Source: Patescibacteria group bacterium UBA4473
GTDB taxonomy: Bacteria > Patescibacteriota > Gracilibacteria > UBA4473
NCBI GenBank assembly: GCA_002389285.1
Contig: DGOF01000029.1
Location: forward strand, 1 to 63,426
Length of the DNA stretch: 63,426 nucleotides
Direction of reading: 5' to 3'
Positions 3,146 to 57,720 of this stretch are shown in pieces. The notes beneath the pieces are model-generated. The model saw nothing but the letters and a program-made list of their open reading frames with translations. It searched no databases and had not been told where the DNA came from. A program made the translations under genes and the position numbers. Numbering within the stretch: position 1 is the first letter of the stretch; every line of letters begins with the position of its first letter.

Positions 3146-3382
3146 TTAGTGACCGTGTGATTCCATATCCATATCCATTTCGTGTTCATGCATGTTGTCC
3201 ATGTCCCCCAGATGATCTTCGATCGACATGTTCATGCGAGCAGCGGCTTCTTTTTGTTCTTGGAATTCTTCCATAGAAAGTCCATAAGAAGCGGCCATGT
3301 CAGCTTCGGTCATAGGTTTTTGACCACAAGCGGTGAGAAGAAAAGCGAAGGCGAAGATGAAAACGATTGATAATTTTTGCAT
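3146..3382 (-). CDS. Small Met/His-rich lipoprotein, putative periplasmic metal (Cu/Ag) binding protein
   Basis: 78 aa with a lipobox (LLTAC). The C-terminus MNMSIEDHLGDMDNMHEHEMDMDMESHGH is rich in Met/His/Asp. It lies directly upstream of the adaptor/pump genes on the same strand. Confidence 0.6.
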   Translation of the reverse strand: MQKLSIVFIFAFAFLLTACGQKPMTEADMAASYGLSMEEFQEQKEAAARMNMSIEDHLGDMDNMHEHEMDMDMESHGH

Positions 3383-3440
3383 AATAAAAAAAGAAAAAAG
3401 AAATAAAAAATAAATCCTACTAAGAATATTCTTTTTCTGT

Positions 3441-3788
3441 CTAGAGCAAAAGCTGGATTGTCTTGGTAATGATCGCTGGAGGATCTGGGCTGGAAAAAAC
3501 CAGCATCAAGGATTTTGGTGTAAAGATCGGTGCGGCGATGAAATCAGGAATCGTGTAGCTTGTTTGGAGAACAATCTCTGGGGAATCGCTTTCTAAAACA
3601 GTGGTCTCACTCCAGGCTTCTGCGGCTTCTAAGCAGGCGTCGCAGTTTGCTTCTTCTTGTTCGGGAGCTTGTTCCTGATGACAGGGAGGTAGTTCGGTCG
3701 CCTCAACGGTCATGCCTCCCATGAAGCTAAAGCAACTCAGGAGGAAGAGTTTGGAGAAGAGAAGGGAGAGCGAGGAGATTCGGTTCAT
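3441..3788 (-). CDS. Hypothetical secreted protein (signal peptide, Cys-containing acidic segment)
   Basis: 115-aa ORF with a hydrophobic N-terminus (LSLLFSKLFLLSCFSFMGG) followed by CHQEQAPEQEEANCDAC. No family recognised. It sits between the ncRNA array and the efflux operon. Confidence 0.5.
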   Translation of the reverse strand: MNRISSLSLLFSKLFLLSCFSFMGGMTVEATELPPCHQEQAPEQEEANCDACLEAAEAWSETTVLESDSPEIVLQTSYTIPDFIAAPIFTPKSLMLVFSSPDPPAIITKTIQLLL

Positions 3789-3829
3789 GGATACACGCGG
3801 ATTGTAGCAGGGAAGCGGATGTGCGTAAA

Positions 3830-4047
3830 GAGAGAGACCGCCTTTTTTAGGGGCGGTCTCGTCCTGTTTCGGTACGGGGCAGGCTCACAGGCGTATAGTC
3901 TGTGAGCATGTGGTTGGTCAGTGTGATTAACCGACGAAGGAGGTCGCACTGAACCGAACACGCTGTCCGTTACTTTTCCCCGATAATACTCGTTCCATCG
4001 GAAGAGTCCGGGAGAGATGAAGCTAAAAGCTTCGAAGCAAACAGGTT
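3830..4047 (-). ncRNA. Structured ncRNA, copy 1 (subfamily A), unknown family
   Basis: Minus-strand promoter: TTGACA (4081-4076), N16, TAAATT (4059-4054). Predicted 5' end ~4047. Hairpin 1 is GAAGCU/AGCUUC (4019-4033). Hairpin 2 is UUCC-GAU-GGAA (3989-4006). The closing helix pairs CCUGUUU (4045-4039) with AAACAGG (3869-3863). The terminal hairpin at 3834-3860 has a 9-bp stem but only a weak U-tract, so this is the least terminator-like of the four copies. Confidence 0.7.
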
Positions 4048-4097
4048 GATACTAATTTAGTATTTACTGCGTATTTGTCAAATCTTTTTAGGATTTA

Positions 4098-4320
4098 AAA
4101 CAAAGATAAGAGGGCCGCCTTTGTGGGGCGACCCAGACCTATTTCGGTTTATCTAATGTTAGTGAGGGTGATTCCTCGCTAACATATGTCCAGATACAGT
4201 GAGGACAGGCCCGGAGGGCCCACTGGAGCAGGATGAACTTTCTTGATTTTCCCCGATATACTCGTTCCATCGGAAGAGCCCGGGAGAAAGAAGCCAGAGG
4301 CTTCAAAAGCAAATAGGTTG
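4098..4320 (-). ncRNA. Structured ncRNA, copy 2 (subfamily A), unknown family
   Basis: Promoter: TTGACA (4354-4349), N16, TTAAAG (4332-4327). Hairpin 1 is GAAGCC/GGCUUC (4290-4304). Hairpin 2 is at 4261-4278. The closing helix pairs CCUAUUU (4317-4311) with AAAUAGG (4144-4138). The terminator is GGGUCGCC-loop-GGCGGCCC (4134-4112) followed by UCUUAUCUUUGUUUU. Confidence 0.75.
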
Positions 4321-4361
4321 ACGCTACTTTAACTGTTTTTGTCGATTGTGTCAATTTTTGT

Positions 4362-4589
4362 ACAAGGAAAAACGGCCGCTTTGTGGGCGGCCTGGGTTTG
4401 TTTCGTGTGCTATATGGATTACGGATCATGATTGAATGTAGATCCATTCGGACGAGGTCCGTCTCCTGACGAAGTCAGAATAGAGAACCGGGCCTTGTCC
4501 GAAGCAGCGGCTTATTTCTTCTCGGACTCATTCCATCGGAAGAGCCATGCGAGAAAGAGGGGTTCTGAAAGAACCAAGCAAACAAACTT
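4362..4589 (-). ncRNA. Structured ncRNA, copy 3 (subfamily B), unknown family
   Basis: Promoter: TTGACA (4623-4618), N16, TAACTT (4601-4596). Hairpin 1 is GGUUCU/AGAACC (4561-4575). Hairpin 2 is at 4527-4544. The closing helix pairs GUUUGUUU (4587-4580) with AAACAAAC (4403-4396). The terminator is GGCCGCC-CACAAA-GCGGCC followed by GUUUUUCC (4392-4365). Confidence 0.75.
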
Positions 4590-4635
4590 GTTTCTAAGTT
4601 ACTCATTTTTCACAATATGTCAATGCTTCTTGCTT

Positions 4636-4855
4636 CTTTAAAAAACAGGACCGCTTTGAGGGCGGCCCGGGTTTGTTTCGCGTGCTTTCTCAGTCAGGTT
4701 TTATGGTGAAAACCGGAGTGAGGATATAAATGGGAACCTTTAGACGAAGTCAGGTTCACATTTCATCAGCATCTATCTGATCTCTTCTCTGACTGATTTC
4801 ATCGAAATAGTCATGGGAGAAAGAGGGGTTCTAAAAGAACTCAGCAAACAAACTT
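4636..4855 (-). ncRNA. Structured ncRNA, copy 4 (subfamily B), unknown family
   Basis: Promoter: TTGACA (4889-4884), N16, TAAGTT (4867-4862). It begins 17 nt after the stop of the vWA gene. Hairpin 1 is GUUCU/AGAAC (4828-4840). Hairpin 2 is the variant UUUC-GAU-GAAA (4793-4810). The closing helix pairs GUUUGUUU (4853-4846) with AAACAAAC (4678-4671). The terminator is GGGCCGCC-CUCAAA-GCGGUCC followed by UGUUUUUU (4668-4638). Confidence 0.75.
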
Positions 4856-4905
4856 AAGCCTAACTTAGTTGTTATCTTAATTTTGTCAAGTCTTCTTCGT
4901 TTTGG

Positions 4906-6903
4906 CTATGATTTTGACGAGAAGGCGTCGATATTTTCTTCTAAAAACGTGATGGTTTTATCGACGGCCTCCCCTACGCGGTGGCTGGCAGCGGCGTGCA
5001 TACGGGTTCGGCAATGGGGACGAAAATGAGACTCATACATTTCAATCACGGCTTGTGCACAGGGGGCGACACCATTCACCATGAAATAAATCCCTAAGGG
5101 ATCTTCTTGGATTTGATTCAAAACGGTATCTTCGGGAAGTGTGTCATATCCATCACTGAGGATAGATATGAATTTTAAGGCATTGGGATCGTGTAATTTC
5201 ATTCGTGAGTATCCATATTTTAAGGATGCTTCACTATTGGTTCCTCCAGGATTTTGCATTTCGAGGATTATTTGGTAAAATCCTTGGACGAGCGTTTTGA
5301 GGGTGGGGGCGTCATCGAGGGGGACCACAAGTTTTATGCCACTGTGAAACAATATGACTTCTGTTTGAACCGGGCTTTCCATGCCGCGGGGAAGTTTGTA
5401 TCGTCCGGATTTGTTTCGAAGTTCTTCGGCAATATTGAGCGCGGATTGCATGAAAGCCGTGTAATATCCGAGGGTTTCATTCAGTTGGTCGCCCATACTT
5501 CCGGATACATCAATTATTTTTTGAATCTGGAGGATTTTGGGGGTGAGAAAGTTTCGTTGATTGACATATACGGGGGCATCAAATTCGCCCATCCGTCCTC
5601 GGGTCCAGGCTTCGGCTTCGCGGCCGGGTTCCACCATGGATCCGGATCGTTGTCTTCGAACGGGCATTTTTCGGTATTCTTGTTGAATAAAACGAGTGAA
5701 GACTTCGGTGAGACGTGTGATTTGCGGAGAAAATATGTCACAGGTTTGAAGATATTGGCGATAGATTTCGGGGGGTATTTCGAGTTGCTCGGCCATTTCT
5801 TGAATGTGAGAATCCAATATTTTTCCGCTCATTTTACCACTCCCATCAGCGTCTGTTCCCAGGAGATCATCGATTCTCTTGGCCGCTTCTTGAAGGTTTG
5901 CTTCGACGACCTGCTTTCCTTCTTTTGTTCCTGGTTTTACGGTTGTTGATTGTTGAGTCACCACTTCAATTTGTCGGTTGTGTTGTGCGATTTGTTCGAT
6001 GATTTCTTTGAGTTTGGCTCGCGGATCGTCTGCTTTGGAACATTGTTCATCGATATCCTCTTGAAGGAGTCGACCGAGGTCCTGCATGCCTTCAAAAAAG
6101 ACCATGCATTTTTCATGCACGGAGGAGGTGGTACTTCTGAGGGATCGGAAGTAATGTTCCATGGTTGGAACTTCGTTTACAACTTTCGGAGGAAGGGTGT
6201 TGGTCTCTGGCATTCCAAAAAAAGGTGCCGTGAGAAAGAGGTTTTGAAAGGCTATGTGATCCATGGCTCCTTCAAATTCGTTGTCTTTCCAGACAAATTC
6301 TTGGGTTTCTTTAAATTCCTGAGCACGTTTTTGTCCGGCCTCTCTTTCTTCCGGGCTGACACAACCCATTTCTTTTGAAAAGATCGTTCCTCGATTTAAA
6401 AGAAAACACTGTCGCAAAAGATCTTGGGTGGTGACATTTTCGGCATGAGGGGCGATGGTTTCAAGGATCACGTCCGCACAAGTATTAATGAACCCGCGCG
6501 CCATTTGTTCTTTGGTTTGTTGGGGAAGTTCTGCAGGAAGTTGGCTTATGGTTGCGGGAATCAGGGCTTCACATTGATCTTGAAATTGGAGCAGTTCTGG
6601 TAAATGGTGACCGAATTCATGCGCAAAACAGGCCATTTTTTCATCGATGGGAAGGGTGAAAATCGTGTAGGGATTGTAGAAAATGATCTGTTGTTTGATC
6701 AAGGTCGCATATCCAGGGTTGTCAGGCGTGGCTTCTGGGTCAGGTTGTAAAGGGAATCTCCTCGCATTGGGAATGAGTTGCTCGAGAATCTGTAAAAAGG
6801 CCTCCCCATTATCCCCATCTTCAGAAAAGGCTTCTGCAAGAGTGGTCGGAAGAGGACGTTCTATGTCCACTTGAGTCGGTAAGAGGTCTTCGTTTGGTGG
6901 CAT
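4906..6903 (-). CDS. HExxH metallopeptidase-like N-terminal domain fused to a C-terminal von Willebrand factor A (vWA) domain with an intact MIDAS motif
   Basis: 665 aa. CFAHEFGHHLPE carries the HExxH motif (codons at 6621-6607). The vWA domain has IIDVSGSMG (DxSxS at 5511-5497), then GGTNSEASL and ISILSDGYDT. The gene starts 11 nt after the AAA+ gene stop. The architecture resembles the metallopeptidase+VWA partners of MoxR-type ATPases, as far as I recall. Confidence 0.8.
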   Translation of the reverse strand: MPPNEDLLPTQVDIERPLPTTLAEAFSEDGDNGEAFLQILEQLIPNARRFPLQPDPEATPDNPGYATLIKQQIIFYNPYTIFTLPIDEKMACFAHEFGHHLPELLQFQDQCEALIPATISQLPAELPQQTKEQMARGFINTCADVILETIAPHAENVTTQDLLRQCFLLNRGTIFSKEMGCVSPEEREAGQKRAQEFKETQEFVWKDNEFEGAMDHIAFQNLFLTAPFFGMPETNTLPPKVVNEVPTMEHYFRSLRSTTSSVHEKCMVFFEGMQDLGRLLQEDIDEQCSKADDPRAKLKEIIEQIAQHNRQIEVVTQQSTTVKPGTKEGKQVVEANLQEAAKRIDDLLGTDADGSGKMSGKILDSHIQEMAEQLEIPPEIYRQYLQTCDIFSPQITRLTEVFTRFIQQEYRKMPVRRQRSGSMVEPGREAEAWTRGRMGEFDAPVYVNQRNFLTPKILQIQKIIDVSGSMGDQLNETLGYYTAFMQSALNIAEELRNKSGRYKLPRGMESPVQTEVILFHSGIKLVVPLDDAPTLKTLVQGFYQIILEMQNPGGTNSEASLKYGYSRMKLHDPNALKFISILSDGYDTLPEDTVLNQIQEDPLGIYFMVNGVAPCAQAVIEMYESHFRPHCRTRMHAAASHRVGEAVDKTITFLEENIDAFSSKS

Positions 6904-6914
6904 GAATATTTCTT

Positions 6915-9900
6915 TTAAGACCGGTAGGTTGGAAGCGTTGGAAGATCGACGGGAATTTTTCGCATCATGTGTTCCACGATGACCTGCATATTGCTTTCTT
7001 GGATCTCGGAGATCATTTGTATGGCTTCTATGTAGGGAAGGGTTATCTTCATAGGTTTATCGGGATGGATACCTCGTTGTGCCATGAAGGTTTTGACCTG
7101 TCCTGCAATTTCCATAAGACGGTCCAAAGGAATGACTTTGAGATCGTAGAGTTCTTTCGCTTCTTTGAAGATGGTGAGAATCGGAAGAAACTGTGATTCA
7201 AAGATCGTAAAGTCTTTCATGACGGCTTGTGCTCTTTTGGATATGGCTTTGATCGGAGGGTTGAAGGCGGCTTCTCTTCTTTTTTCAAAGTCTTCTTTCC
7301 AGTCGTCTTGGTGCTTCATAATGACCCCGGTGGGCTCGTCTGCGTCTTCTCTGGTAATGAGTTCTTTGAAATCAGGACATTGATGGATGAGGCTTATGAT
7401 TTCTGGGTACTTTCGGAGTGGACGCATATGGCTTTGAATAGCTTTTCGAATGGGCTCGGCTTCTTCTGGGGTTATAACAAAGAGCGCTTGCATATCGGTC
7501 CAGTGACGAAGGACCTGCTGGACCGTGTTTTTTCGAATTTTTGTTTTACTTCTGGTTTTCGCTGCTTTTGATTCGCTCCCGTTTTCCGTTTCCTTGATGT
7601 TTTGGGTCGCTTCGTCGAGTGTTTGGACGAGATATTCGAGGCTTGGGTTTTTAAAGGCTTTTTCGTCTTGAAAAGAATCGCGTGAGATGAATTTTTTCTC
7701 TACGCCAAGGGCAAAGAGAGAAGCGTTACGGAGGAACGTCACGGGATTATCTTTGGTGTTTTCGATTTGTGCTTTAAGAAATTCTGTGAGGGATTTGGAG
7801 GCTTTTTCCGAGAGTGTTCCAACGGAGAGTGAATCGTCTTTCGTTCCAAAGTTTGCTTGAAGGAGCTCGGTCCAATTTTCCGTAGCGATGAGTTCTTGTT
7901 GATACTCGTTTATGGATTTCATAACGAGCGGATTCAGTCCCATTTTTCCGAGTTCGGCCATGTGATCAACATGATGCGCGTACTTTTGGGCCTCTTCTCC
8001 ATGGACGGGACAGTGTTTGACGCCACAAACGGGACATCGGTGTTGATAGTTTTTTTTGCTCTCACTGTAGTCGTGCGGTTTGAAGGATACTTGATCGGCG
8101 CGTGCGGAATCGATGAGTTCGCTTAATCGAGCGGATCCAAGATTGGAAATCATGCCTTCAATTTCTTTTTTATAGCCGTTGAGGAATCCACTTCCGATGA
8201 GAAGAGGAATGATAGTTCGAAGACTGTCGGTATATCCGAGGGCGAAGGCATCTCGTACGTAGTGTGCCATAAGCGCTTCGTCGATATTACACGGATGATG
8301 ATTGGTTTGAGGATTGATCGATTTACAAATTTCAATCAAGACCCGATTTGAGAAGGGGAGAAATTCATTTCTTCCTCCGTATTCTCGTGTCAGTGTGGCT
8401 TTTAGTTTGGGGATCAGTGTTTGAACGAGGAAGTGCATTTGGTAGGCACTTTCATCGTCAATCGTTCCGGCGTTGTCAGTGAGTGCAAAATGTCCGGTCA
8501 TGGGGTCACAAAGATGAGCCCAGGCAAGGGATCGAGTCATTTCTTCTGGGGGGAGTCCTTGGAAATCAAGCGATCCTCCCATGGCTAATCGGCTGGCCAT
8601 GGCGGGATTGGCCGCAATAGAGGTTCCGTGTTCGGATCCGACATTTCCCGTAAAGGTGATACAAAACTTATCTCCGACGCGCATCCATTCAGAGGTGATG
8701 GTATTGAAAAACCATCCAATAGGATTTTTTTGAGTTTTTCCCTCTTCTTGTTTTCGTGTTTCAGGGCGCGGTCCGGCGGTTTCGTCATCGGCTGGAATAC
8801 AGTGCAATAAGGAGTGCAAAAAGGTCCAGTTATCGAGTTCCGGGAACTCGTTGATGATAATGGGCGTGTTCTTGATGAGTCCTTGAAGGATATTTCCGTA
8901 GGCAAATCCTCGTTGGGTGGTTTGGCTTTTAAGCACGGTGAGGAGATGGGAGGTCAGATCTTTTTGAGCGGATTTTTTGAGCAGGGCGCGGAGTTCTTCA
9001 ATACTGGCCCCTCCTTCGGAAAGAGTTTGTTCTGTGAGTTCGAAATGTTTTTCAAAAAAATCAGGATCTTGTGCTACGAGTATTTCTATTTGGGGTTTGT
9101 CTAGCTGATCGATCATGCTGGTATGGGCCATGGCTTGTTCCGCCATGGTTTGATCTCCGATCGTGGGTCGGGCCATAAGTGTAAAGGACGATTGTCCGGG
9201 ATCGATATCGATCGAAATGGGTTCGATACCATGCATTCGAAAATATTCTTGGAGGAGGCTGGTTTTTCCTTCTCCGGGAGGGCCGGTCAGCGTGGGGCCT
9301 ACGACGTGTCTTCGATCGGCTCCGTAAATACGGCCGTGAAGATTATTGAGATGTTGGATAACGGTTTCACTTTCATGAATCGATCGGTGGTTTTGTGCAT
9401 CGCCAATACATTTCATATGTTCTTGTCGTTGGTGGGCCATGCGTACGCTTTCATCCTGCCATACGGAATAGAGGCGTTCTTTGAGTCCGGTTTCTTGTTC
9501 GAGAAGTCCACCATCGGTTCGTTGAACTTGATTGAGAAATTGAGCCCCTCCTGGCATCGAACTTCCTATTTCTGTTTGCAAATATTGCTTGAGAATACGA
9601 CGTTGTTCCGCTTGGTCTTGTTGGTTTTGGAGGAGGTTTTCTTGGAGGGCATTGAAATTTGCAAGAGTCGCTGGACAGTATCCTGTCGTGAGATTCTCAT
9701 CGGGTTGATGTGCGAAGCTATAGATTCTTTCGGCTTGATGCGATATTTGATCGCCATAGGCCGTTACAGTGGTACGGATATCGTCTTCGATTCGTACTTG
9801 TGTTGCGTCCATGAGCTCTCTTTGACCGGCAAAGGCTGGCATCTCTCGGAGTGGGTTACTGGCCGCGTGCGTGAGCATCTGAGCGTTTGTCGTGAGCATT

Positions 9901-10112
9901 CTCACGATAAAATCAGCTTGATCATCTGGAAGTTCTTCGGGGACAGCGGGATTCGTGAGAAGTGTTTGGCTTACACGATCTGAAAAACAATCCGCCAGAT
10001 CATGGAGGTAGGCGAGCGGGTCTTTGTGGAGTTTTTCTTGTGCGGCTTGAAGACCTTCTGGCGTTTTGAAATCGATAGCTTTAGTCGTCATAAGATGAAT
10101 ATTATTTACCAT
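6915..10112 (-). CDS. Large AAA+ ATPase, MoxR/AAA_5 (CbbQ/NorQ-like) core, with long N- and C-terminal helical extensions and a CxxC..CxxH zinc knuckle
   Basis: 1065 aa. Walker A is GPTLTGPPGEGKTSLL (GPPGEGKT at 9284-9261). The Walker B-like segment GNILQGLIKNTPIIINEFPELD is at 8864-8847. ITFTGNVGSEHG...NPAMASRL looks like the sensor-1/Arg region. CPVCGVKHCPVHGEE forms the zinc knuckle. The gene starts 6 nt after the RT stop. Confidence 0.75.
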   Translation of the reverse strand: MVNNIHLMTTKAIDFKTPEGLQAAQEKLHKDPLAYLHDLADCFSDRVSQTLLTNPAVPEELPDDQADFIVRMLTTNAQMLTHAASNPLREMPAFAGQRELMDATQVRIEDDIRTTVTAYGDQISHQAERIYSFAHQPDENLTTGYCPATLANFNALQENLLQNQQDQAEQRRILKQYLQTEIGSSMPGGAQFLNQVQRTDGGLLEQETGLKERLYSVWQDESVRMAHQRQEHMKCIGDAQNHRSIHESETVIQHLNNLHGRIYGADRRHVVGPTLTGPPGEGKTSLLQEYFRMHGIEPISIDIDPGQSSFTLMARPTIGDQTMAEQAMAHTSMIDQLDKPQIEILVAQDPDFFEKHFELTEQTLSEGGASIEELRALLKKSAQKDLTSHLLTVLKSQTTQRGFAYGNILQGLIKNTPIIINEFPELDNWTFLHSLLHCIPADDETAGPRPETRKQEEGKTQKNPIGWFFNTITSEWMRVGDKFCITFTGNVGSEHGTSIAANPAMASRLAMGGSLDFQGLPPEEMTRSLAWAHLCDPMTGHFALTDNAGTIDDESAYQMHFLVQTLIPKLKATLTREYGGRNEFLPFSNRVLIEICKSINPQTNHHPCNIDEALMAHYVRDAFALGYTDSLRTIIPLLIGSGFLNGYKKEIEGMISNLGSARLSELIDSARADQVSFKPHDYSESKKNYQHRCPVCGVKHCPVHGEEAQKYAHHVDHMAELGKMGLNPLVMKSINEYQQELIATENWTELLQANFGTKDDSLSVGTLSEKASKSLTEFLKAQIENTKDNPVTFLRNASLFALGVEKKFISRDSFQDEKAFKNPSLEYLVQTLDEATQNIKETENGSESKAAKTRSKTKIRKNTVQQVLRHWTDMQALFVITPEEAEPIRKAIQSHMRPLRKYPEIISLIHQCPDFKELITREDADEPTGVIMKHQDDWKEDFEKRREAAFNPPIKAISKRAQAVMKDFTIFESQFLPILTIFKEAKELYDLKVIPLDRLMEIAGQVKTFMAQRGIHPDKPMKITLPYIEAIQMISEIQESNMQVIVEHMMRKIPVDLPTLPTYRS

Positions 10113-10118
10113 AAAAGA

Positions 10119-11906
10119 TTATTTTTTCTCCTTAAAACCAGGAAGATTGATGAAATTACTTTTTTTGTCTTTTGTATGTTTTTGTTTTTTGGGGACGGGA
10201 GCAAGGACTTTGGTGACTTCTTTTTCTGCATCCCAGAACAAATAACGCGTTCCACGGAGGATGGCATAAAGACTCGTGTCACCTCGTTCTTCCGCTTGAC
10301 CTTTTATGGCTTCACAAAGTCGTTCCCAGGCTTCTCGATTAAGTTTGAGGGTCAGGAGTGATTCTCCTTGGGCATCAGACTCATCTTCATTTTCTATAAC
10401 ATCTTCCTTGTTGAAAACCGTGAGTTCTACAAACGCAATGAGTTGGTAGAGGCTTGTTTCAAACAGGGCTCGTATTTCTTCTTCGGAAAGATCGTCATTA
10501 TCTTCGATCGATTCGGCGATGTTTGCGATTTGATCCGAGAGTTCAAATTCTACAAGAGTTTCATCTTTGTTAATGGTCTCTTCCATTTCGAGGAGAGAGG
10601 ATTTGGCTTCGTCGATTTTTGCGGTGAGTTCTTCGGGGGTGATATTTCGTTTTTCACAGAGCGTTGCTTGACGTTTTTGGGTGAAGACTTCTTTATCGGC
10701 ATCAACATAGTCGACCTGTTCTTGCATTTTCATTGCCTGGTTTGAAAACCATCCAGAAGCACTGGCGGGGAGGATGTCTCCGAATTTCTCCAAAAATTGT
10801 CGCCAGGCATGCGCCATGCGATCAGGAAGGACATAGAGGTCATCTTTGATCGTATCGCCTCCTATACGGGCAATGTGATGGGCGTGAGCGAATTTTCCAA
10901 GAATAGATGCGACTTCTTTGTGTTCTAAGAATTCGGCTTGTGTTGTCGGTAGAGCGTCTCCACGAAGATTATTATGATCGATGAGTGCATGCATTTGAGA
11001 AGCCCAGGTTTTGGCGCGGGAATGTGGAATACGAAATCGTAATTTTTTGTCGCTTTTTTTATCGGCGGGGAGGAGATCTACGCCCCAAATTCGATACTTT
11101 TTGTCGTTTTCTTTGTAGTGGGTTTTGTGCGGTGCGGCTTGAAATCCAAAAGATTTGAGGATACTTATGACGAGATGTCGGAATTCTTCGGGGATGTGTT
11201 CACTTCCCAAGATCATAATATCATCGGCATAGCGTCCGTAGGTGAGGTTTCCATCTATTCCCGCTTCTTTAGCTTTTTTTTGAATGATCCGATCAAAGGA
11301 GCTGCTGGCGACCATGTTCGAAAGGGTCGGGGAAGAGGGTGCTCCTTGGGGGAGGCGTTCTTCGAGACAGCAGAGCTCGGTGATGAGTTCGGCGAGTTCT
11401 TGGACGAGTTCGGTCGTGAGTTTGGGGCCTTTGTTCCAATTGTGAAGTATGCGATAGAGAAAATGATAGACTTCTTCTTGTACTTGATCTCGATTTACAC
11501 TGGGAAAAAAGTCGGTGATGTCGGTTTCAAAACAGGCATCCACGTTTTGATCTCGTTCTTCAAAGGTATCTATCATACTTCGAAGTCCGGTGTAGGCGGA
11601 TTGTCCGGCGCGAAATCCAAAAGAGGCCTCACTGAGGGTTGCTTTTCGAAGTAGGTCTTGGATGCGTCGTTGAACAAATTTAAGCGCCTCACTGGGGGCT
11701 TCAATGGTTCGTGTTTTTCCGGGTCCTTTGGGAATTTCAAATATTCGATAGTTTTTTCCTGAATCTCCCTGGTTGTTTTCAAGGGCTTGTACGACCAAAG
11801 GGGCGATGCTTGGAATACCATCGTTTCTAAACGTTGCTTTGTCGAGGGCCTCAAGGGCTTGTTGTGACGGAACACCAATGGATTGTTGTGATGATTTTCG
11901 AGGCAT
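10119..11906 (-). CDS. Stand-alone reverse transcriptase (retron/Abi/UG-like catalytic core) with a ~300-aa acidic helical C-terminal extension
   Basis: 595 aa. RT motifs: FEIPKGPGKTRTIEAP (RT1), FGFRAGQSAYTG (RT3), ETDITDFFPSVN (RT4/A), LPQGAPSSPTLSNMV (RT5/B), YGRYADDIMILG (RT-C; YADD at 11231-11220), HKTHYKEN...YRIWGVDL (RT6/7). I see no maturase, endonuclease or DGR-type motifs. Confidence 0.85.
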   Translation of the reverse strand: MPRKSSQQSIGVPSQQALEALDKATFRNDGIPSIAPLVVQALENNQGDSGKNYRIFEIPKGPGKTRTIEAPSEALKFVQRRIQDLLRKATLSEASFGFRAGQSAYTGLRSMIDTFEERDQNVDACFETDITDFFPSVNRDQVQEEVYHFLYRILHNWNKGPKLTTELVQELAELITELCCLEERLPQGAPSSPTLSNMVASSSFDRIIQKKAKEAGIDGNLTYGRYADDIMILGSEHIPEEFRHLVISILKSFGFQAAPHKTHYKENDKKYRIWGVDLLPADKKSDKKLRFRIPHSRAKTWASQMHALIDHNNLRGDALPTTQAEFLEHKEVASILGKFAHAHHIARIGGDTIKDDLYVLPDRMAHAWRQFLEKFGDILPASASGWFSNQAMKMQEQVDYVDADKEVFTQKRQATLCEKRNITPEELTAKIDEAKSSLLEMEETINKDETLVEFELSDQIANIAESIEDNDDLSEEEIRALFETSLYQLIAFVELTVFNKEDVIENEDESDAQGESLLTLKLNREAWERLCEAIKGQAEERGDTSLYAILRGTRYLFWDAEKEVTKVLAPVPKKQKHTKDKKSNFINLPGFKEKK

Positions 11907-11989: not shown

Positions 11990-12916
11990 TTATTGCTTTG
12001 CCTTGGCACGTTTTTCTCGGAGATAGCGTGCTGATTTTATGGGTCCTGCGGAAAAAATTCCCTTGATAGATTGTGAGAGGCTGGGGCCTCGGACGATATC
12101 GGCGATGGCTGTTCGAATGTTTTCGGCGAGCTCGTGAGGGTTTTCGGCAAAGTCCGTTTTGTCGCGAAGATTTTCTGGGAGTTGGCTGTGCAGTTCGGAT
12201 TGGGTCCGTGGGGAGGACTCTCGTTCGAAATAGTCTTGTCCTTCTCCTATTTTTAGAATATTCCATCGCTGTTCTATGGCGGATTTATAGAGTTCGGCAA
12301 AGGCGTCTTGGTTCTTGGTGACAATGTTTTCTATTTTTCTTGGATTTTCTGCGTGTTTCATGCGCGTATCTCCTGTATAAGAAAGTCCGGCAATGGTTAT
12401 AAACAATTCTTCGGGAGTGAAGTTCCCGGGTAAGAGGAGCAGGGCGGTTGAGAGCGCGTGTTTGAGATTTTTCTGAATCGCCCAGCGAACATCCGTGGTG
12501 GTTTGTAAGATTTCAACCGGTTTTTGGAGGCGTCCGGCACAATAGAGTGTGGTCCATTCGAGAAGATCTTTTTTAAGGTCTTCGATAGAAATGACGCCGT
12601 ATTTTATTTCGCGATATCCGAGGTCGTCTTCAAAATCCACATAGGGGTGATAGTAGATCCCTGCGCCTTGATCTTGAAGTATTTTTAGGACTTTGTGTCC
12701 GAGCATGCGCGCGAGGAGCGAGTAATCTTGAGGATTTTGTGCGAGTTGTAGGTTATGCCAGTCTTTTGTTTCCAGAACTCCCCAAATGAAATCAATCATC
12801 GGTTGGTCATTTTTGTCATAGCCTTCTTGTTCAAAGGCTCCTGATCCGTAGACCATGGCAAAGTCTGGTTTGTATTTCTCTAAAATCGCTTCTGGGTCGA
12901 AACTTAATTTTTTCAT
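11990..12916 (-). CDS. Tam41/Mmp37-family protein (mitochondrial-type phosphatidate cytidylyltransferase homologue)
   Basis: 308 aa. MVYGSGAFEQEGY, PMIDFIWGV, WHNLQLAQNPQDYS, GAGIYYHPYV, IKYGVISIEDL and TLYCAGRLQKPV match the conserved blocks of Tam41/Mmp37 as I recall them. Confidence 0.65.
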   Translation of the reverse strand: MKKLSFDPEAILEKYKPDFAMVYGSGAFEQEGYDKNDQPMIDFIWGVLETKDWHNLQLAQNPQDYSLLARMLGHKVLKILQDQGAGIYYHPYVDFEDDLGYREIKYGVISIEDLKKDLLEWTTLYCAGRLQKPVEILQTTTDVRWAIQKNLKHALSTALLLLPGNFTPEELFITIAGLSYTGDTRMKHAENPRKIENIVTKNQDAFAELYKSAIEQRWNILKIGEGQDYFERESSPRTQSELHSQLPENLRDKTDFAENPHELAENIRTAIADIVRGPSLSQSIKGIFSAGPIKSARYLREKRAKAKQ

Positions 12917-57642: not shown

Positions 57643-57720
57643 GGGGCATTAGCTCAGCTTGGCTAGAGCGCATGCATGGCATGCATGAGGTCATCGGTTC
57701 GAGTCCGATATGCTCCACCA
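57643..57720 (+). tRNA. tRNA-Ala (anticodon GGC), CCA encoded
   Basis: Manual cloverleaf fold. Acceptor GGGGCAT/ATGCTCC with the G3:U70 Ala identity pair. D arm GCTC-AGCTTGGCTA-GAGC. Anticodon arm CATGC-AUGGCAU-GCATG. T arm ATCGG-TTCGAGT-CCGAT, followed by ACCA. Confidence 0.9.

Follow-up and report, generated by a model that had tools for sequence, protein, structure and literature searches.

Introduction

Retrons are known as pairings of one reverse transcriptase (RT) with one non-coding RNA (ncRNA). By definition, the retron ncRNA possesses complementary a1 and a2 ends, a conserved branching G whose 2'-OH is used for priming, an msr of one to three short hairpins that is not copied, and an msd of a single or double hairpin that is copied from its 3' end toward the msr (Mestre 2020, PMC7736814), and the RT is characterized by region X, an NAXXH motif between RT2 and RT3 in which the H is most conserved, and by region Y, a VTG motif in RT7 in which the G is most conserved (PMC7736814). 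Retron arrays have been described as laboratory constructs, the engineered "multitrons" (PMC10370050). In this article, we discuss a locus on a stretch of DNA of 63,426 nucleotides (nt) from Patescibacteria group bacterium UBA4473 (contig DGOF01000029.1, hereafter the window), in which an array of four ncRNA genes follows an operon encoding a retron-like RT, an AAA+ ATPase and a protein combining an HExxH motif with a von Willebrand factor A (vWA) domain. On balance, these four RNAs are probably retron-type msr-msd transcripts of an undescribed retron-like system of candidate-phyla-radiation bacteria, the make-up of which is an RT, an AAA+ ATPase, an HExxH-vWA protein and an ncRNA gene array. 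The new property would be the pairing of one RT with an array of separately transcribed msr-msd-like genes.

The literature that we searched contains no natural multi-ncRNA retron (overlap with the preprint 10.64898/2026.09.22.753630, in which "ncRNA array" and "reverse transcriptase" occur together and which does not seem to treat the taxa or proteins considered here, was neither excluded nor shown), no paper on retrons and candidate-phyla-radiation bacteria together, and, apart from MoxR-vWA systems linked to diversity-generating retroelements (DGRs), no AAA+/vWA-metallopeptidase pair that is coupled to an RT.

Compared with the described retrons (types I-XIII), the locus shares the a1/a2 ends, the G right after a1, an RT that is nearest to retron RTs, accessory genes within the operon, a 5' RNA region of two to three short hairpins that co-varies with the RT lineage and a 3' region of hairpins that is free in sequence. 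It departs from them in having one to 12 ncRNA genes per RT, each under a sigma-70-type promoter and with its own terminator, whereas the retron msr-msd is co-transcribed with ret; in the location of the array upstream or, in the window, downstream of the operon; in an RT with GLRxM and IWG in place of NAXXH and VTG and with a C-terminal extension of 300 amino acids (aa); in an AAA+ ATPase and HExxH-vWA pair that matches no PADLOC retron effector; and in its confinement to candidate-phyla-radiation lineages. Similarly, the array resembles the multitrons (PMC10370050) in combining several msr-msd units with differing msd inserts and one RT, and would be their natural counterpart, albeit with a separate promoter for each unit.

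A covarying closing helix and an invariant junction

The ncRNA genes occupy positions 3830-4898 on the minus strand, where exactly four units of 260-270 bp stand in tandem, each served by a TTGACA promoter and an intrinsic terminator of its own, and the array begins 17 nt past the stop codon of gene 3, the last gene of the minus-strand operon. In all four units an exact TTGACA -35 box sits 36-37 nt 5' of the a1 arm, a TAAnTT-type -10 box follows 16-17 nt after the -35 box, and the predicted transcript start lies 1-3 nt ahead of a1, itself 7-8 nt long. After a1 come G-C-U, two hairpins, a unit-specific stretch of ~100 nt, the sequence (A/C)CGAA, whose AA are the opening bases of the complementary arm a2, the remainder of a2, and a terminator with a GC-rich hairpin that begins 2-4 nt past a2 and is followed by a T run. 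A scan of 3400-5200 returned nine terminator-like sites, with 1.8 expected, and five promoter-like sites, with 2.0 expected; and a four-copy nhmmer profile found exactly four units and no copies elsewhere in the window. Rfam assigned no family to the array RNAs at gathering thresholds over the whole window and gave only chance-level matches, no Y_RNA among them, at E<=10 between 3700 and 5000.

The original prediction, made from the sequence of the window, held that the first nucleotides of each transcript pair with those just before its terminator and that this helix covaries, and it was borne out: CCUGUUU (4045-4039) pairs with AAACAGG (3869-3863) in copy 1; (A)CCUAUUU (4318/4317-4311) with AAAUAGG(U) (4144-4137) in copy 2, where the change from G to A is offset by one from C to U; and GUUUGUUU with AAACAAAC in copies 3 and 4 (4587-4580/4403-4396 and 4853-4846/4678-4671). 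When each copy was folded, the closing helix, both 5' hairpins with their enclosing stem, the 3' hairpins and the terminator all appeared in the unconstrained minimum free energy (MFE) structure. The four window transcripts have fold z-scores of -4.6 to -5.6 against dinucleotide shuffles, and RNAalifold, given the four copies, predicts 27 pairs, which include the closing helix and hairpin 2 plus its outer stem and of which 10 show compensatory changes.

Furthermore, covariation of the closing helix is supported in homologues. When 31 units from nine loci (the window and eight others) were aligned with their arms in register, the inner six pairs were paired in every unit, a figure that is partly so by construction since the scan for these units demanded at least six pairs. 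Four of the inner six pairs covary (CG/UA/UG, CG/UA/AU, GC/AU and GC/UA), the covariation score of the helix is 0.49, a value that none of 500 shuffles attains (0.23 in shuffles), and sliding the partner by one to three columns lets pairing fall from 77% to 22-45%. A regular expression blind to the helix, requiring only the promoter, TTGCT and CGAA, yielded 14 units, all of which form the closing helix in their unconstrained MFE folds, and the same was seen when units of the related loci L007, L009 and L010 were folded. Across all 42 units the helix measures 6-12 bp and no unit-sized gaps were seen in the arrays; within the L007 array alone the helices vary between units (CCUAG/CUAGG, CCCAG/CUGGG and CUCAG/CUGAG, for example).

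The bases next to this helix are constant. UU-G-CU directly 3' of a1 is invariant in 31 of 31 aligned units, its G comes right after the last a1 pair in every one of them, which is the position of the retron branching G, and the CGAA leading into a2 (usually ACGAA) is equally invariant. As read from the alignment, the geometry of the UU-G-CU/CGAA junction matches that of the retron branching G, and a G at the helix end facing a template-side ACG looks exactly like a conserved initiation site.

A conserved scaffold and a variable 3' part

The original prediction had also divided each RNA into a conserved 5' part of ~90 nt and a variable part of ~110-120 nt; the modular layout is real and the sizes needed revision, to ~72 nt and ~100 nt, respectively. 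Between the four window copies the first 71-73 nt are 66-88% identical, and the following 97-107 nt are 53-61% identical vs 57 +/- 2.4% for shuffled sequences. Nor are the variable halves unconstrained spacer: over the 100 nt before CGAA the mean fold z-score is -3.9, and 41 of the 42 units lie below -2.

Within the scaffold, the best-kept element is a hairpin whose loop has 3 nt (GUU, GAU, GGA or UUU). An outer stem of pyrimidine/purine type encloses it, GGGGAA- or GAGGAA-like bases come next, and its inner stem shows changes on both sides in seven of seven pairs, with a covariation score of 0.85 vs 0.29 that none of 500 shuffles reaches. Window units have two scaffold hairpins and their relatives one to three, with one hairpin ahead of the triloop element in the window and one or two ahead of it in relatives. 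The 3' part folds into two to three hairpins with stems of about 5-14 bp and is always closed by a terminal hairpin of 7-13 bp, after which come an A/C-rich linker of 8-14 nt and then ACGAA. Setting aside one pair of near-identical assemblies, the variable parts within an array share at most a partial proximal hairpin, and the terminal hairpin by a2 differs completely. Units 2 and 3 of L001 (9242-9874) are 93% alike over 46 nt of the proximal variable half, and pairs of L007 units are 82-89% alike over 27-60 nt of it, with an unrelated terminal hairpin; this mosaic of a shared proximal half and an unrelated terminal hairpin suggests module exchange or focused turnover. A covarying 5' scaffold joined to a 3' part that is free in sequence and constrained in fold is, as the alignments present it, the division of labor between msr and msd.

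Two recurrent motifs and one lineage-specific insertion were also seen among these RNAs. Arms of GTGAC/GTCAC occur in 13 of 38 distinct terminal hairpins (taken as the last ~60 nt before CGAA) from several lineages, namely in units of L001, L004, L005, L007, L009, L010 and L013 and in 0 of 4 window units, a frequency of ~3 times a rough chance estimate, and may be a preferred protein-binding palindrome. The proximal variable hairpins of L007 (5360-8190) carry an apical loop with runs of a CGCUN pentamer, e.g., GGCTCCGCTACGCTTCGCTG, and these loop runs recur in most of the 12 L007 units despite differing flanking stems. The L007 lineage also has an extra hairpin of ~40 nt between promoter and a1 (5360-8190).

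In the window, all units read on the minus strand. Unit 4, the first after gene 3, spans 4641..4889 and was delimited by promoter, helix, fold and terminator, with the -35 box TTGACA at 4889-4884, the -10 box TAAGTT at about 4867-4862, a1 at 4853-4846, the invariant G at 4845, the scaffold at 4853-4781, the variable part at 4780-4683, CGAA plus a2 at 4678-4671 and the terminator at 4668-4648. It is followed by unit 3 (4368..4623), with its -35 box at 4623-4618, a1 at 4587-4580, G at 4579, scaffold at 4587-4515, variable part at 4514-4408, a2 at 4403-4396 and terminator at 4392-4374. Unit 2 (4105..4354) has its -35 box at 4354-4349, a -10 box ending at 4326, a1 at 4318-4311, G at 4310, scaffold at 4317-4247, variable part at 4246-4150, a2 at 4144-4137 and terminator at 4134-4112, and for unit 1 (3830..4081) the corresponding positions are 4081-4076 for the -35 box, 4054 for the end of the -10 box, 4045-4039 for a1, 4038 for the G, 4045-3974 for the scaffold, 3973-3875 for the variable part, 3869-3863 for a2 and 3860-3834 for the terminator.

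The operon beside the array

Gene 1 (10119..11906, minus strand) encodes the retron-like RT of 595 aa, recognized by profile matches and motifs. It matches RVT_1 in Pfam at 1.1e-22, its top PADLOC match is RT_III-A at 8.8e-41 with the 25 best matches all being retron RT models, and NCBIfam places it with retron_St85 at 7.7e-39 (134 bits). Searched against the PDB, the profile of the RT family reaches the Ec86 RT at 1.2e-26, and the PDB matches are the retron RT entries Ec86, Ec67 and Kva2; among other RT classes, a group II model scores 8e-23 and Drt2 1.4e-8. No family member departs from YADD or the other RT motifs, LPQGAPSSP is present, the RT4 region (CC...LPQGAPSSPxLAN) aligns closely with Ec86, and the conserved C-terminal extension of ~300 aa ends in LPGF. 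A group II intron was considered and rejected: a search with Rfam for group II intron RNA domains gave no intron match, and the maturase RT model group_II_RT_mat scores 81 bits on this RT, far below its cutoff of 300.

Gene 2 (6915..10112, minus strand) encodes a divergent P-loop AAA+ ATPase of 1065 aa, an assignment made from motifs in 11 orthologues, across which GPPGxGKT (Walker A) and VILNEFPE (Walker B-like) are invariant; it also bears a zinc-finger-like CxxC...CPxH motif. The window protein has no Pfam match above threshold, weak Pfam matches in the family are to AAA_16 (10 of 11 members), AAA_22 (8 of 11) and AAA_5 (2 of 11), and PDB searches gave no sequence match for the ATPase, weak P-loop matches being all that came of searching by sequence and by profile. 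Gene 3 (4906..6903, minus strand) encodes a protein of 665 aa in which motifs identify an N-terminal HExxH (zincin-like) region and a C-terminal vWA domain: H-E-x-G-H-H near residue 95 is invariant in nine orthologues, the MIDAS motif D-x-S-x-S reads DVSGSM at about residue 465 in the window and DTSGSM in the family consensus, the T and D-G motifs of the vWA domain are also kept in the nine, and eight of the nine match VWA_2 or VWA. Searches of the PDB with the gene 3 sequence and profile gave only a weak match to integrin vWA (0.008), and PADLOC assigned no defence family to gene 2 or gene 3.

A DUF2201-type architecture is found among the metallopeptidase-vWA partners of MoxR-type ATPases. 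The order of genes 2 and 3 recalls these MoxR AAA+/vWA couples, in which a P-loop AAA+ gene is followed by one for a protein with a MIDAS vWA domain and HExxH (Kaur et al. 2020, PMC7159879). However, the pair described here has no significant Pfam match to MoxR (AAA_3), AAA_5 or DUF2201, and its ATPase is 1000 aa or more in length.

Related loci in candidate-phyla-radiation genomes

The family is rare, with only seven full-length homologues of the RT, at 33-38% identity, among 5.8e9 clustered proteins, beyond which the search reaches ordinary retron RTs (about 1e-18). For gene 3, a set of 1.84e9 proteins yielded 39 representative relatives, and HExGH and DxSGS are both kept in 35 of 35 full-length ones. 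The operon was found at 12 other loci (11 distinct; L007 was assembled a second time as L008), which lie in metagenome-assembled genomes (MAGs) of Peribacteria, Peregrinibacteria and Gracilibacteria and on unassigned metagenome contigs; all relatives are metagenomic. In a scan of 185,579 species genomes, every member of the family came from a MAG of Candidatus Peribacteria, Peregrinibacteria or Gracilibacteria, and the IMG/VR viral contigs contained no family member, their sole match being a distant RT at 27%.

Contigs of sufficient length all preserve the order of the three genes, and one to 12 units are present at every related locus that retains flanking DNA (11 of 12 related loci; L003 has none), with L003 and L012 having almost no DNA upstream of the RT, where arrays are not scorable. 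The unit counts are four in the window, three in L001, at least two in L002, one plus decayed remnants in L004, four in L005, one in L006, 12 in L007, four in L009, at least one in L010, at least five in L011, four in L013 and two in L014. Since the array lies upstream of the RT in all loci but the window, where it is downstream of the operon, the linkage between array and operon is independent of position, and this favors function over shared transcription as its explanation.

The arrays themselves appear to gain and lose units, as judged from the remnants of decayed units in L004 (1540-1750): one remnant retains a 3' end with ACTCAAACTGAGTTC replacing ACGAAC... and then a terminator, and a second consists of a promoter and a1, has lost the junction G (GGTTCTT) and is cut ~10 nt further on by the next promoter. 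L009 (7100-8230) and L011 (8400-10000) come from two assemblies of what is essentially one genome, with flanks that are 99.9-100% identical, but the L011 array contains a run of N and one unit more than that of L009; this extra unit (8734-8918) has a unique variable part, and the difference reflects either strain-level variation in array size or collapse by the assembler, to which repeated scaffolds can be subject. In L007, three units at 4511-5330 lie beneath annotated open reading frames (ORFs; 4616-5047 on the minus strand and 5121-5330 on the plus strand), which are probably spurious gene calls, and the array including these three comprises 12 units over 4511-8165.

Discussion

At the RNA level, the array RNAs show every feature of the retron definition that can be tested from sequence, and the likeness to retron msr-msd and other RT-template RNAs that was originally proposed is supported by the adjacent retron-like RT, the linkage to the operon, the covarying helix, the invariant G and the split into scaffold and variable part. 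Several points weigh against taking these RNAs as msr-msd transcripts. The units are separate, multi-copy genes, and in a canonical retron a single msr-msd shares its transcript with the RT; what folds in the 3' part is two or three hairpins of medium size, not one long stem; and in L007 the additional hairpin ahead of a1 moves the helix off the extreme 5' end, unlike in the window. The RT scores below the NCBIfam retron cutoffs (134 vs 235 bits for retron_St85), lacks NAXXH, with the family sequence S-A-Y-x-G-L-R-x-M (GLRxM) standing where Ec86 has S-I-L-N-N-A-T-P-H, and has IWG for VTG, within a family sequence Y-x-I-W-G-V that keeps the G invariant and does not keep V/T. Its structural model has a predicted local distance difference test (pLDDT) score of 60, and Foldseek found nothing for it at E<=0.001, with RTs of retron I-A and of group II as the top, non-significant matches; the AlphaFold 2 model of gene 2, at pLDDT 54, is too poor to search. 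The sub-cutoff scores set the RT apart, by similarity score, as a separate branch from the known retron families, and GLRxM, IWG and the C-terminal extension likewise indicate a retron-like branch and not a member of a described retron type.

If the RNAs are retron-type transcripts, the RT would recognize the conserved scaffold as msr, synthesis would be primed by the invariant G, through its 2'-OH, where the a1/a2 helix ends, and the variable part, the msd, would be copied from the conserved CG onward, so that every complementary DNA (cDNA) would begin 5'-CG, with synthesis halting ahead of the scaffold. One RT could thus supply as many hairpin-shaped multicopy single-stranded DNAs (msDNAs) as there are units, four in the window and as many as 12 in related loci. 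If characterized retrons are a guide, complexes of msDNA and RT may keep the ATPase and the metallopeptidase-vWA effector in check until disturbance by a phage frees them, and, in the most speculative step, the differing hairpins might act as differing sensors or decoys.

The main alternative, which fits most of the data and which we nevertheless consider unlikely, is that the array RNAs act as subunits or regulators and not as templates (structured scaffold, antitoxin-like or specificity RNAs), attaching to the RT, ATPase or vWA protein by the conserved handle and displaying a variable hairpin module, or that only a short conserved stretch of them is copied. The linkage, the covarying helix, the conserved handle and the structured variable part would suit a pure ribonucleoprotein (RNP) role as well, the RT lacks NAXXH, vWA and AAA+ proteins often build RNP or protein complexes, and the recurrent GTGAC/GTCAC terminal arms could be protein-binding sites at the RNA level. 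However, YADD and the other RT motifs are invariant in the family, which argues that polymerization is under selection, and, without priming, it is difficult to account for an invariant G where the helix ends and an invariant ACG where copying would enter the template. A vWA-centered proposal, in which tandem Y-like RNAs are bound at their closing helix by the gene 3 protein for RNA quality control, in the manner of Ro60 (Rsr), draws on the fact that tandem ncRNAs with paired termini adjoin a protein with a C-terminal vWA domain, as with bacterial Y RNAs. The architecture of Ro60 is TROVE plus vWA, however, and TROVE is absent from nine of nine orthologues at E<=1, with HExxH at the N-terminus instead; together with the lack of any Y_RNA or other Rfam match to the array RNAs at E<=10, and with a conserved RT that such an RNP would leave unexplained, this makes the proposal highly improbable.

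Reverse transcription could also serve a different end. In DRT2, a UG2 RT with an ncRNA, a defence-type RT likewise has an adjacent structured ncRNA as template, and the closing helix could conceivably join the template ends for rolling-circle synthesis of a concatemeric cDNA encoding a de novo protein. An open reading frame on single or concatenated cDNAs had been raised in the original prediction as something to look for, and the 42 units show no excess of open frames: stop-free cDNA frames are at chance (0.71 vs 0.66 expected per unit), and the cDNA strand is open as a 3x concatemer in 3 of 42 units (7 of 84 unit-strand combinations overall). In addition, the RT belongs to another clade, with the Drt2 model at 34 bits vs a cutoff of 390, and closing helix and junction G indicate branched priming, not rolling-circle synthesis, so we give a DRT2-like mechanism very little credence. 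Candidate-phyla-radiation genomes are rich in DGRs, which invites the thought that the variable parts are template repeats mutagenizing a target gene. MoxR-vWA systems, moreover, can be DGR-linked (PMC7159879). Nothing resembling a variable part turned up elsewhere in the window (best E about 0.03-0.5 over 12-42 nt), the RT has its closest relatives among retron RTs, not DGR RTs, and the units differ throughout and not by A-to-N substitutions, all of which speaks against a DGR, an explanation that we regard as barely credible. It is also most improbable that these are ordinary trans-acting small RNAs, or a repeat family that is merely near the operon; a promoter and terminator for each unit would fit such RNAs, but they co-occur with the operon in divergent genomes (33-38% RT identity) and in two relative positions, and the window holds no further copies.

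Returning to the retron-type reading, a bolder extension of it, which we put forward only tentatively and regard as rather doubtful, is that the locus is a natural template library: one RT would be served by an expandable array of one to 12 separately transcribed templates, whose hypervariable hairpins are quickly exchanged or replaced to give a repertoire of msDNAs, with each hairpin gating the AAA+/metallopeptidase-vWA effector and responding, as bait or sensor, to its own invader factor. An innate system of ultra-small episymbiotic bacteria would then possess an array-encoded, cassette-like layer of specificity. Should one RT indeed serve an array of up to a dozen template RNAs with a common handle and unrelated template modules, retron RTs would accept arbitrary msd cargo in nature, multiplexing that has so far only been engineered, in the multitrons, would have a natural precedent, and selection would act on the diversity of msDNA sequence itself, which bears on what msDNA senses. 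Candidate-phyla-radiation bacteria would also be credited with a new effector pairing, of AAA+ ATPase and HExxH-vWA protein, and with a defence-like RT system to which their small genomes devote 7-10 kb. Furthermore, a handle of ~72 nt with a1/a2 and a free template of ~100 nt would be an attractive chassis for multiplexed single-stranded DNA production in vivo.

Neighboring features

The array is immediately followed downstream by two small ORFs, at 3441-3788 (minus strand; 115 aa, a hydrophobic N-terminus and no Pfam match) and at 3146-3382 (minus strand; 78 aa, with a lipoprotein-like LptM_cons match at 3e-4, below threshold), and since neither is present in the related loci, they are probably not parts of the system. 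The sole Rfam match at gathering level in the window is a tRNA gene at 57643-57717 (plus strand). Directly upstream of the RT gene, at 11990-12916 (minus strand), is a gene for a phosphatidate cytidylyltransferase of the Tam41/Mmp37 type (Pfam, 6.7e-92), a family that Pfam describes as mitochondrial and that is found here in a candidate-phyla-radiation genome.

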